From Escherichia coli (GTDB lineage Bacteria; Pseudomonadota; Gammaproteobacteria; Enterobacterales; Enterobacteriaceae), in assembly GCF_003790525.1 (NCBI RefSeq), contig NZ_CP033635.1: DNA of 64,000 bases, one strand, 5' to 3'. This document shows positions 6,670 to 8,343 of this stretch, in pieces. Each line of letters begins with the position of its first letter. Positions within the stretch are counted from its first letter, which is position 1. The position numbers and the translations under genes were made by a program. The notes beneath the pieces are model-generated. The model did not search any database. It saw only the letters and a list, made by a program, of their open reading frames with translations, and was not told where the DNA came from.

Positions 6670-8343
6670 TTACCACCAGACTTCCGCCTGGATGCCGGCC
6701 ATAAATTCGTCTTTGCTGTTCTCATTAAACTTAAAATTAGATAATTCGTTATCCAGAATATTGATATACGTGCCATAGAAGCGAATTTCTGGTCGTGAAC
6801 CTAAAATGCTTTCACCCACTTTCAATGCATGCCAGAGTGTCGTTTTATAAGCCGATTCATTTAGTGTTACACCCTGCTGTGCTTTGTTCTGTTGCTTAAA
6901 CCAGCCTAATTCAAGCCCCGTCTGATTCCATGTATTCCAGATCCAGGCCGGTCTTATTACGGTGCGAATACTGTCAAAATCACTATGAGCGCCACTTTCA
7001 TAACTATAAACATCTTCGCCATGAGAATAGACAAGCGCGTTAGCCATAATAATATTGTCAGTAAGATACATCTCGCCCTGAGAGATTAAACGCCAGGCGA
7101 TCCCATTGGTATGGTCACCATAGTAATAGCGACCATGCGCCATCGTGTTACTGGCATCTGAGAAACTGGCAAAACTGCTGGCATAGGAATTATTGGCAAC
7201 CTGTAACGTAAATTCATTAAACGTATCGCGTTGCAGTTTTTGCCGTAAAACAGAAGTCAGCATCCAGCTATCTTTCATTTCAAAATAACTGTCGTCATTT
7301 TCATTATCTTGTTGTTGATCCGTTTTATTAGGTGCGGAATATTTAGCCATTAATGATAATGTTGCATCATCCCATAACGGGATATTGCGATAACGAACAT
7401 CCACAGAATTAGTATTCATCTGACTGGTACGCGTAAAATCACGGGAGTAAACATCGACATCATCTCGGCTTAAGGACATATCAAACAGCCCTACACCAAG
7501 TGCCCAGTTTTCAATCCCCACACCCGCAGCGACATCCGTGGTTAAGGTTTTCCAGTCCAGCATTTGGATCTCATATTGCGGGAGTTTATGTTTGCCTACC
7601 CAGAAGTCTGCCTCTGGCGCGAAGGGTAAAAAACCTCGCGTTGTCAGATAAATATCACTGAACTGCATGATATTTTCATTGGCACTGTCACCAAACCAGG
7701 CATCGTTATACTGCTCACCTACGTTGCCATCATAGGTAACGACCGCATTTGCCGTTTTACCGTCCTGATTATAAACACGCTGATTTAAGGTTAAGTCAAA
7801 CCAACCGCTCATCTCGTTACCAAAACGTCCCAGAGAACCCGCTGCATAAGTTTGTGGTGAGCCATGATTTCCGGTACCCCAACCTGAGCGAAAGTACCCC
7901 TGATAGCTGAACCCAATATCATCTTTTATATATTTACTGATATCTTTCAGGGTCACGCTTTCGATAGTGGTTTTATCGCCTTTACTTTCAATAACGGCAA
8001 TTTGCTGCGATCCATTTATAGTATGTGCTGCGGCAGACGAGTTCTGTTCACCGTTTTCATTTTTGATGTTATCAGCAACGGGAGATGGAGCTGATATTTC
8101 GGCAAGCGAGGCCGATTGATATTTATTTTCTGTGATGCTTTTTTGTAATGTCGAAAGTCGGAATTTATATACTCCTAGTTCATTCTGTGTTGCTCTCAGC
8201 TCTTGTTTATTTTGCGACAATTCATTTTCAAGCAGTTCAAGGCGCTGCTCTATGGTTAATTTTGTTGCCATCGCGTTCAATGGAAACAATGCTGTAATAA
8301 TAGAAAAAGACAAAAGGCTGACGTTAAGCGTCTTTATATTCAT
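6670..8343 (-). CDS. LamB-family carbohydrate-specific porin with N-terminal coiled-coil extension (ScrY/BglH-like)
   Basis: signal peptide, coiled-coil heptads ([28 protein letters not shown]), beta-barrel-like C-terminus ending ...AEVWW. Confidence 0.7.

Follow-up and report, generated by a model that had tools for sequence, protein, structure and literature searches.

bgcH, the carbohydrate porin gene of the bgc beta-glucoside operon of Escherichia coli

The gene at positions 6670–8343 (minus strand) of the window, a 64,000-nucleotide stretch of Escherichia coli contig NZ_CP033635.1 (assembly GCF_003790525.1), is bgcH, which encodes the porin of the bgc operon for beta-glucosides. It is a real and already described gene and presents nothing new: bgcH is annotated, its Pfam domain architecture is curated, its paralogue BglH has been characterised and a description of the bgc operon has been in print since 2009. 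The analysis establishes the gene and its domains, a helix with a heptad pattern, a barrel fold, the place of the gene in its operon and the identity of the locus in E. coli. From these we consider it very probable that the product, BgcH, serves as the outer-membrane channel of this accessory (beta-glucoside/cellobiose) operon, acting in the manner proposed below.

The bgcH gene, its operon and its island

The bgcH coding sequence was delimited from the list of open reading frames, the Pfam matches of its product to Sugarporin_N and LamB and the RefSeq match. The initial annotation had called a porin at 6670–8343, and this was borne out: the interval is exactly one open reading frame of 557 amino acids plus stop, intact and read from an ATG at 8343, with a match to Pfam PF02264 (E = 1.8e-81) and with LamB and ScrY as its top structural matches. 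The protein is 100% identical to WP_001022787.1, a "carbohydrate porin" of E. coli SMS-3-5, and over the segment compared, 5206–11400 of the window (6.2 kb), the DNA is 100% identical to the SMS-3-5 chromosome. A mis-called start, which had been raised as a concern, was ruled out. A Shine-Dalgarno motif, AAGGA (8350–8354, minus strand, from reading of the sequence), lies 7 nt 5' of the ATG; this ATG is the earliest start codon of the frame and coincides with the RefSeq start; a signal peptide follows it; and the N-terminus is conserved in orthologues. Since all bgcH homologues, including truncated variants, share one N-terminus, the start is correctly called.

The porin is encoded by the fourth of five co-oriented genes on the minus strand, in the order IIB-IIC-IIA-porin-GH1. 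The first, bgcE (10174–10485), codes for a phosphotransferase system (PTS) IIB component (Pfam PTS_IIB and RefSeq). It is followed by bgcF (8738–10060), coding for a IIC component of the lactose/cellobiose family (Pfam PTS_EIIC; NCBIfam TIGR00410, 336 bits against a cut-off of 236), and by bgcI (8399–8710), coding for a IIA component of the same family (Pfam PTS_IIA, E = 3.9e-32; start as in RefSeq). The final gene, bgcA (5206–6645), codes for a GH1 6-phospho-beta-glucosidase (NCBIfam NF007154, 1030.6 bits against a cut-off of 624; start as in RefSeq). Divergently oriented on the plus strand, bgcR (10684–11382) codes for a GntR/UTRA regulator, assigned by its Pfam GntR and UTRA domains.

The spacer between bgcI and bgcH holds an 11-bp stem-loop, UUUCCUCCAGU...GCUGGAGGAAA (8368–8395, minus strand), found by RNA folding and with no T-run downstream of it. 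The 81-nt stretch around it (8330–8410) folds at -21.1 kcal/mol (z = -3.2), and the stem sequence is also present at the orthologous Salmonella locus (L009). A scan of positions 5000–11500 for promoter and terminator consensus sites returned no more of them than were found in shuffled sequence.

The six bgc genes lie together on an accessory island of 6,285 bp (5152–11436) between marB and eamA. BLASTN comparison with K-12 delimited this island: its flanks are 98% identical between the two genomes, and K-12 has 38 bp in its place. Salmonella carries the same six genes as a cassette in another chromosomal neighbourhood. Among 5,426 complete E. coli genomes the island was found in 2,563 (47%). 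bgcH is of practical use as a marker for this accessory carbohydrate island, for which enrichment among extraintestinal pathogenic E. coli has been reported.

These features of the island bear on the possibility that bgcH is what is left, in decay, of a silent operon gained by horizontal transfer and supplies no functional porin in this strain. The island is missing from 53% of the complete E. coli genomes, and its GC content (0.39–0.46 in 1-kb windows) is below that of most adjacent 1-kb windows. Defective bgcH alleles exist: one (P0009, 216 member sequences) has a stop after residue 482, another (P0027) an internal deletion, and in a third (P0003) the porin is fused to the glucosidase. The operon is moreover said to be cryptic, growth on beta-glucosides reportedly having required a promoter mutation and low temperature. 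Given the truncated and fused alleles and this reported crypticity, bgcH may do nothing in some strains. As an account of the present gene, however, we find decay improbable: in the window all six bgc reading frames are intact and have good ribosome-binding sites, the cluster of full-length BgcH proteins counts 14,022 member sequences, and the BgcH barrel remains approximately 80% identical across genera while the linker preceding it varies.

Barrel, channel residues and N-terminal region of BgcH

The C-terminal part of BgcH, residues 146–557 (6673–7908, minus strand), was assigned as an 18-stranded beta-barrel on the basis of an AlphaFold2 (AF2) model, a Foldseek search and the family profile. 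Pfam LamB (PF02264; TC 1.B.3) matches residues 147–557 with 275.5 bits, far above its cut-off of 25.1 bits, and the match spans all 378 profile positions (1–378). The predicted structure of this region comprises 18 long strands, and pLDDT exceeds 90 over most of it. The best Foldseek matches of the model were LamB (1mal, 1mpr and 8xcj) and ScrY (1a0t), with E-values of 1e-17 to 1e-25 and target-normalised TM-scores of 0.75–0.80. A profile of the BgcH/BglH family likewise matched both LamB (E = 7e-20) and ScrY (E = 4.5e-6) among PDB sequences. Single-sequence phmmer searches of the PDB sequences, using either whole BgcH or the barrel alone, gave no match at E <= 10; this null result reflects the low sensitivity of the method and is no argument against homology, the profiles and the fold search both matching strongly.

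The LamB channel is lined by a greasy slide of aromatic residues (Y6, Y41, W74', F227, W358 and W420), and the roles of its ionic track and of the constriction residue Y118 are known from LamB structures. We related these positions to BgcH by profile alignment. In BgcH, aromatic residues stand at four of the six greasy-slide positions, Y6 being matched by Y150, Y41 by W181, F227 by F375 and W420 by W556. The ionic-track residues R8, R33 and D116 are also kept, as R152, R173 and D263 respectively. LamB W74 falls in a loop that resists reliable alignment, two alignments disagreeing on its counterpart (D214 or S220, with an invariant W216 nearby). Three positions are not conserved: W358 is replaced by L514, the constriction residue Y118 by K265 and R109 by Q256. 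As a result of these replacements, the BgcH pore differs from those of LamB and ScrY, and its selectivity is not readable from sequence. The BgcH constriction is thus built unlike that of LamB, as would be expected of a porin with another substrate, and these residues would not by themselves predict what that substrate is.

The N-terminal 26 residues (8266–8343, minus strand) form a signal peptide, recognised by its hydrophobic core (mean Kyte-Doolittle value of 2.07 over residues 8–22), an A-x-A motif and its alignment to BglH. The cleavage site reads LNAMA|TK, the motif being A-M-A, and the N-terminus of ScrY is equivalently hydrophobic. The presence of this signal peptide ahead of the coil corrects the earlier description of the protein, in which the long linker discussed below had also gone unnoticed.

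Residues 29–73 (8125–8259, minus strand) form a predicted periplasmic coiled coil, assigned from a heptad and shuffle test, Pfam, AF2 and conservation. The heptad register is unbroken from I31 to I70 and amounts to six heptads, with leucine-rich a positions (L35, L42, L49, L56, L63 and I70) and more mixed d positions (I31, L38, N45, T52, Y59 and L66). L, I, V or M occupies 9 of the 14 a/d positions, a number reached in only 22 cases when the segment was shuffled 20,000 times. Pfam Sugarporin_N (PF11471), described by Pfam as a "maltoporin periplasmic N-terminal extension", matches residues 30–56 with 29.1 bits (E = 1.2e-6) against a gathering cut-off of 25.7 bits. AF2, run on an alignment of 40 sequences, predicts a single helix over residues 31–73 with pLDDT of about 80–89. 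The a/d residues are also conserved in BgcH orthologues from Citrobacter, Salmonella, Enterobacter and Kluyvera. That the coil should be an artefact, produced either by a mis-called start or by a chance run of heptads, is scarcely credible: no observation in its favour was obtained, and the conserved N-terminus, the rarity of the pattern among shuffles, the Sugarporin_N score above cut-off and the 43-residue AF2 helix all stand against it.

The initial annotation had described about 60 residues of heptad-repeat sequence preceding the barrel, and had suggested coiled-coil and barrel prediction as a check. The predictions agreed with it on both elements, and the heptads are real by register, Pfam and AF2. 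The length is 40–45 residues (approximately 43), a figure of 60 being reached only by counting on to the first proline, residue 86. The coil is also not adjacent to the barrel: residues 74–128 and 129–145, some 70 residues in all, intervene, and the barrel begins at about residue 146.

The first of these intervening elements, residues 74–128 (7960–8124, minus strand), is a low-complexity linker of approximately 55 residues, identified from AF2 pLDDT, orthologue alignment and composition. It is rich in S, A, N and E, its sequence drifts among orthologues, and AF2 assigns pLDDT below 50 to residues 75–130; the linker is probably disordered. The second, residues 129–145 (7909–7959, minus strand), is a conserved pre-barrel helix, identified by AF2, which places the helix at residues 132–143, and by alignment. 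K133, D134, S136, K137, K140, I143, G144 and F145 are invariant across BgcH and BglH, and the motif recurs in four distant representatives (P0126, P0129, P0133 and P0134) but not in ScrY.

Proposed function of the porin and its periplasmic coil

We infer that BgcH, once its 26-residue signal peptide is removed, most likely assembles into a trimer of 18-stranded barrels like that of LamB. The row of aromatic residues would guide cellobiose and aryl-beta-glucosides as they diffuse through each barrel, the channel presumably being specific for beta-glucosides. The co-encoded PTS (IIB, IIC and IIA) would then take up and phosphorylate the sugars, and cleavage of the phosphorylated products would fall to the GH1 6-phospho-beta-glucosidase of the operon. 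Each subunit would carry a periplasmic extension of 119 residues made up of the six-heptad helix, the flexible tether of approximately 55 residues and the short helix under the barrel. The helices of three subunits would most likely pack in parallel as a trimeric coiled coil with a length of about 6 nm. If ScrY is a guide, this coil may stabilise the trimer and/or offer a low-affinity "extended sugar slide" toward the inner-membrane PTS, a partner lacking a periplasmic binding protein. The notion of a sugar-handling extension, invoked in the initial annotation, does have a source in the literature on ScrY: Dumas et al. (2000), as relayed in PMC5557850 and PMC6173795, proposed that the ScrY coil interacts with sugar and forms an "extended sugar slide".

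Whether the coil would handle sugar at all can be weighed against a simpler account, in which it is an aid to trimerisation or assembly, or a peptidoglycan spacer, and the barrel alone carries out transport. The coil sequence is generic, with leucines at a and polar N, T and Y among the d positions. BglH has only about three heptads and is nonetheless cited as a beta-glucoside-specific porin, and relatives such as P0134 and P0140 have kept the barrel and have no coil. PMC6173795, furthermore, describes trimeric coiled coils in the periplasm as structures by which ScrY and DcaP are "stabilized", and calls their direct roles in translocation unclear. Several points nevertheless speak against a coil without a sugar role. 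LamB trimers are stable in its absence, solved LamB structures starting at the barrel; the coil is conserved among BgcH orthologues while the neighbouring linker drifts; and Dumas et al. proposed sugar interaction for the equivalent segment of ScrY. Overall we regard this purely structural account as possible, if rather unlikely.

A further point against it comes from the inner-membrane transporters with which coil-bearing and coil-less porins are encoded. We surveyed approximately 12 LamB-family loci, a tiny sample in which the loci are phylogenetically non-independent. Coil-bearing porins were found in PTS operons in the case of BgcH (in E. coli, Salmonella and Kluyvera), BglH, ScrY, P0130 and P0132, while P0131 and P0139, which also bear a coil, stand alone; among coil-bearing lineages with an identifiable partner transporter, five out of five were therefore in PTS operons. 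None of the four coil-less loci examined had a PTS operon around it: ABC-transporter genes accompany L002 and P0190 in their clusters, P0163 adjoins GH3 and MFS genes, and P0152 adjoins malM. In this small survey the presence of the coil thus tracks the type of inner-membrane transporter, a pattern that a pure assembly role does not predict. With LamB counted among the coil-less porins, five lineages stand against five and the division is complete. This split is the single mildly new observation of the present analysis. It fits a coil that replaces a binding protein and proves nothing.

For LamB itself the inner-membrane partner is the maltose ABC transporter, which works with the periplasmic binding protein MalE. 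One could accordingly picture the coil as a specific adaptation of porins that feed PTS permeases, the 6-nm trimeric coil of BgcH reaching across the periplasm on its tether of approximately 55 residues to hand beta-glucosides to the IIC protein BgcF, or to dock on it, and so taking a MalE-like role. We put this forward as a speculation that is more probably wrong than right by a wide measure. Whether the coil stands in for a binding protein when uptake runs through a PTS is nevertheless the sole thread worth pulling here, and it would be general to porins of the ScrY/BglH/BgcH type. BgcH, with a coil of ScrY length and a tether of unusual length, would be well suited to testing it.

Comparison with BglH, ScrY, LamB and the published bgc operon

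The closest characterised protein to BgcH is BglH (YieC), with 53% identity over 541 residues. Its elements follow the same order: a signal peptide, a coil with the motif LT(I/V)EQRLELLE, a linker, a helix with the motif TLKD.SK.(I/V)KD.IGFSY and a LamB barrel. BglH is likewise encoded in a beta-glucoside PTS operon, the bgl operon of K-12, where it adjoins a GH1 phospho-beta-glucosidase. The two differ in that the coil of BglH, at about three heptads, is roughly half as long as the six-heptad coil of BgcH, and its linker is approximately 20 residues shorter. Their partners also differ, BglH being associated with the glucose-family transporter BglF and the antiterminator BglG, and BgcH with lactose/cellobiose-family IIB, IIC and IIA components and a GntR regulator. 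BglH is referred to as a carbohydrate-specific, beta-glucoside porin (PMC2646131, citing Andersen et al., i.e. Andersen, Rak and Benz 1999).

The sucrose porin ScrY (PDB 1A0S/1A0T), retrieved here by a search with the PDB ScrY fragment, also combines Sugarporin_N and LamB domains, so that this architecture is common to BgcH, BglH and ScrY; Sugarporin_N scores 45.6 bits in BglH and 40.7 bits in ScrY. The coil of ScrY, at approximately 40 residues, is similar in length to that of BgcH, its 18-stranded barrel gives a target-normalised TM-score of 0.80 against the BgcH model, and it too is encoded in a PTS operon (scrK-scrY-scrA-scrB, from the scrKYABR plasmid locus). ScrY is, however, only 23% identical to BgcH, and its extension of 71 residues has neither the long linker nor the conserved pre-barrel helix. 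The initial annotation had likened the N-terminus to that of ScrY-type porins. This is apt as regards the Sugarporin_N domain found in both, less so as regards kinship, the nearest characterised relative being BglH and not ScrY. In sequence the BgcH/BglH profile is nearer to LamB than to ScrY, and "ScrY-type" therefore describes the architecture of BgcH and not its lineage. Two plasmid tblastn matches were considered as ScrY and rejected: one (H25) is a "maltoporin" that has no coil and lies in a galactan/ABC cluster, and the other (H31) is a truncated maltoporin adjoining blaCTX-M-14.

The maltoporin LamB shares its barrel family and fold with BgcH but, in contrast to BgcH, has no N-terminal extension. 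This difference, already pointed out in the initial annotation, stood up: solved LamB chains start at the barrel, and LamB is for that reason taken to be without the coil domain.

Lastly, the locus can be set against the bgc operon as published. According to the summary in PMC3585215 of the work of Neelakanta, Sankar and Schnetz (Appl Environ Microbiol 2009; 75:2284), bgc comprises five genes under the GntR-type positive regulator BgcR and confers the use of cellobiose, arbutin and salicin; the genes given in that account are those for IIB, IIC, IIA and the phospho-beta-glucosidase BgcA, plus one left unnamed. Separately, a six-gene cellobiose-PTS cluster of strain CFT073, c1955–c1960, is listed as present in SMS-3-5 (PMC2831201). 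The initial annotation had called the substrate of the porin unknown, which is too pessimistic in view of the PTS and GH1 genes of the operon, its GntR regulator and the match to bgc with these three sugars. Operon context and this match together point to beta-glucosides as the probable substrate. Our searches on the bgc operon and its gene names gave one relevant citing paper, and in them no experiment on BgcH itself was found. We take the fifth bgc gene to be the porin named BgcH, and the CFT073 cluster c1955–c1960 is presumably the bgc locus. The published operon, that of septicemic and uropathogenic E. coli, and the one in the window have in common their species, six-gene set, gene order and accessory distribution, with no difference detectable at the level of the citing paper. 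bgcH is the same gene as the porin gene of the published bgc operon.

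Hairpins at the island ends and in the IIA-porin spacer

Each end of the bgc island bears a strong hairpin, one at window positions 5155-5182 and the other at about 11385-11420. The hairpin lying 3' of bgcA has a 12-bp stem, and the 76-nt stretch enclosing it was calculated to fold at -24 kcal/mol (z = -5). The 38 bp occupying the island site in E. coli K-12 differ in that they encode another GC-rich hairpin, GCCCCGA...TCGGGGC. The presence of hairpins at both ends of the island, together with the different K-12 hairpin, therefore led us to conclude that the island carried in its own, predicted, terminators, and that these displaced the native marB/eamA terminator.

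A further stem-loop with an 11-bp stem, UUUCCUCCAGU...GCUGGAGGAAA, was located on the minus strand at window 8368-8395, within the 55 nt that separate the IIA gene from the porin gene bgcH. The surrounding 81-nt stretch has a folding energy of -21 kcal/mol (z = -3.2). A role as a classical terminator was considered and rejected, since no T-run is present 3' of this stem-loop. The identical stem sequence was found at the equivalent position in the Salmonella locus (L009, about 6949-6972), where the loop differs. The spacer stem-loop may instead be an intercistronic element which, through mRNA stability, processing or attenuation, sets the ratio of PTS to porin expression.

Variation and decay of the bgc cassette

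The bgc cassette is both mobile and variable, as seen from its loci in Salmonella and Kluyvera. The Salmonella locus carries the same six genes in an unrelated neighbourhood, with a nitroreductase gene on one side and an autotransporter gene on the other. In Kluyvera (locus L011) the orthologous porin directly follows IIB-IIC and the next gene encodes a HAD-type sugar phosphatase, the IIA and GH1 genes being missing. A coil-bearing porin of 45% identity, P0130, is encoded in an operon at positions 7001-11313 of locus L013 along with a BglG-type antiterminator, EIIB and EIICA proteins of the glucose PTS family and an enzyme of the alpha-L-rhamnosidase family GH106. Such a combination of PTS and GH106 hydrolase is unusual.

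Defective alleles of the porin were also found to circulate in E. coli. The allele P0009, whose cluster comprises 216 member sequences, is truncated after residue 482 by a premature stop; P0027 has lost residues about 210-274 through an internal deletion; and in P0003 a deletion joins the porin in frame with the 3' portion of the glucosidase gene that lies downstream. In three further E. coli relatives of the porin, P0002, P0005 and P0042, Pfam detects a LamB as well as a GH1 domain; judged by these domains, they are likely to be porin-glucosidase fusions resembling P0003. The defective alleles suggest that the bgc locus is decaying in some lineages.

Other features of the window derived from the SMS-3-5 annotation

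According to the annotation of strain SMS-3-5, the window also contains tus and extends at its far end to uidC, which encodes a second outer-membrane porin, this one for glucuronide uptake. The same annotation records a frameshifted ynfF, coding for a selenate/tellurate reductase subunit (record 1600850-1603272), and an IS4-family ISVsa5 transposase inserted beside asr (record 1591190-1592398); the window positions derived from this record are about 30800-33220 and 41680-42880, respectively.

Porin searches and the pre-barrel helix

A single-sequence phmmer search of PDB sequences with the porin gave no match even at E <= 10. By contrast, tblastn with the porin matched maltoporins at E = 1e-23, and LamB was matched by family profiles at E = 1e-20 to 1e-108. 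For compositionally biased beta-barrels a negative from this single-sequence search should not be trusted.

Immediately N-terminal to the barrel lies a short amphipathic helix (residues 129-145, window 7909-7959, minus strand), which falls in neither Pfam domain of the porin and is more broadly conserved than the coil. This helix was also found in BglH and in the distant representatives P0126, P0129, P0133 and P0134; in P0134 neither a long coil nor a linker separates it from the signal peptide, which it follows directly. Unlike the bgcH porin, the sucrose porin ScrY lacks the pre-barrel helix.
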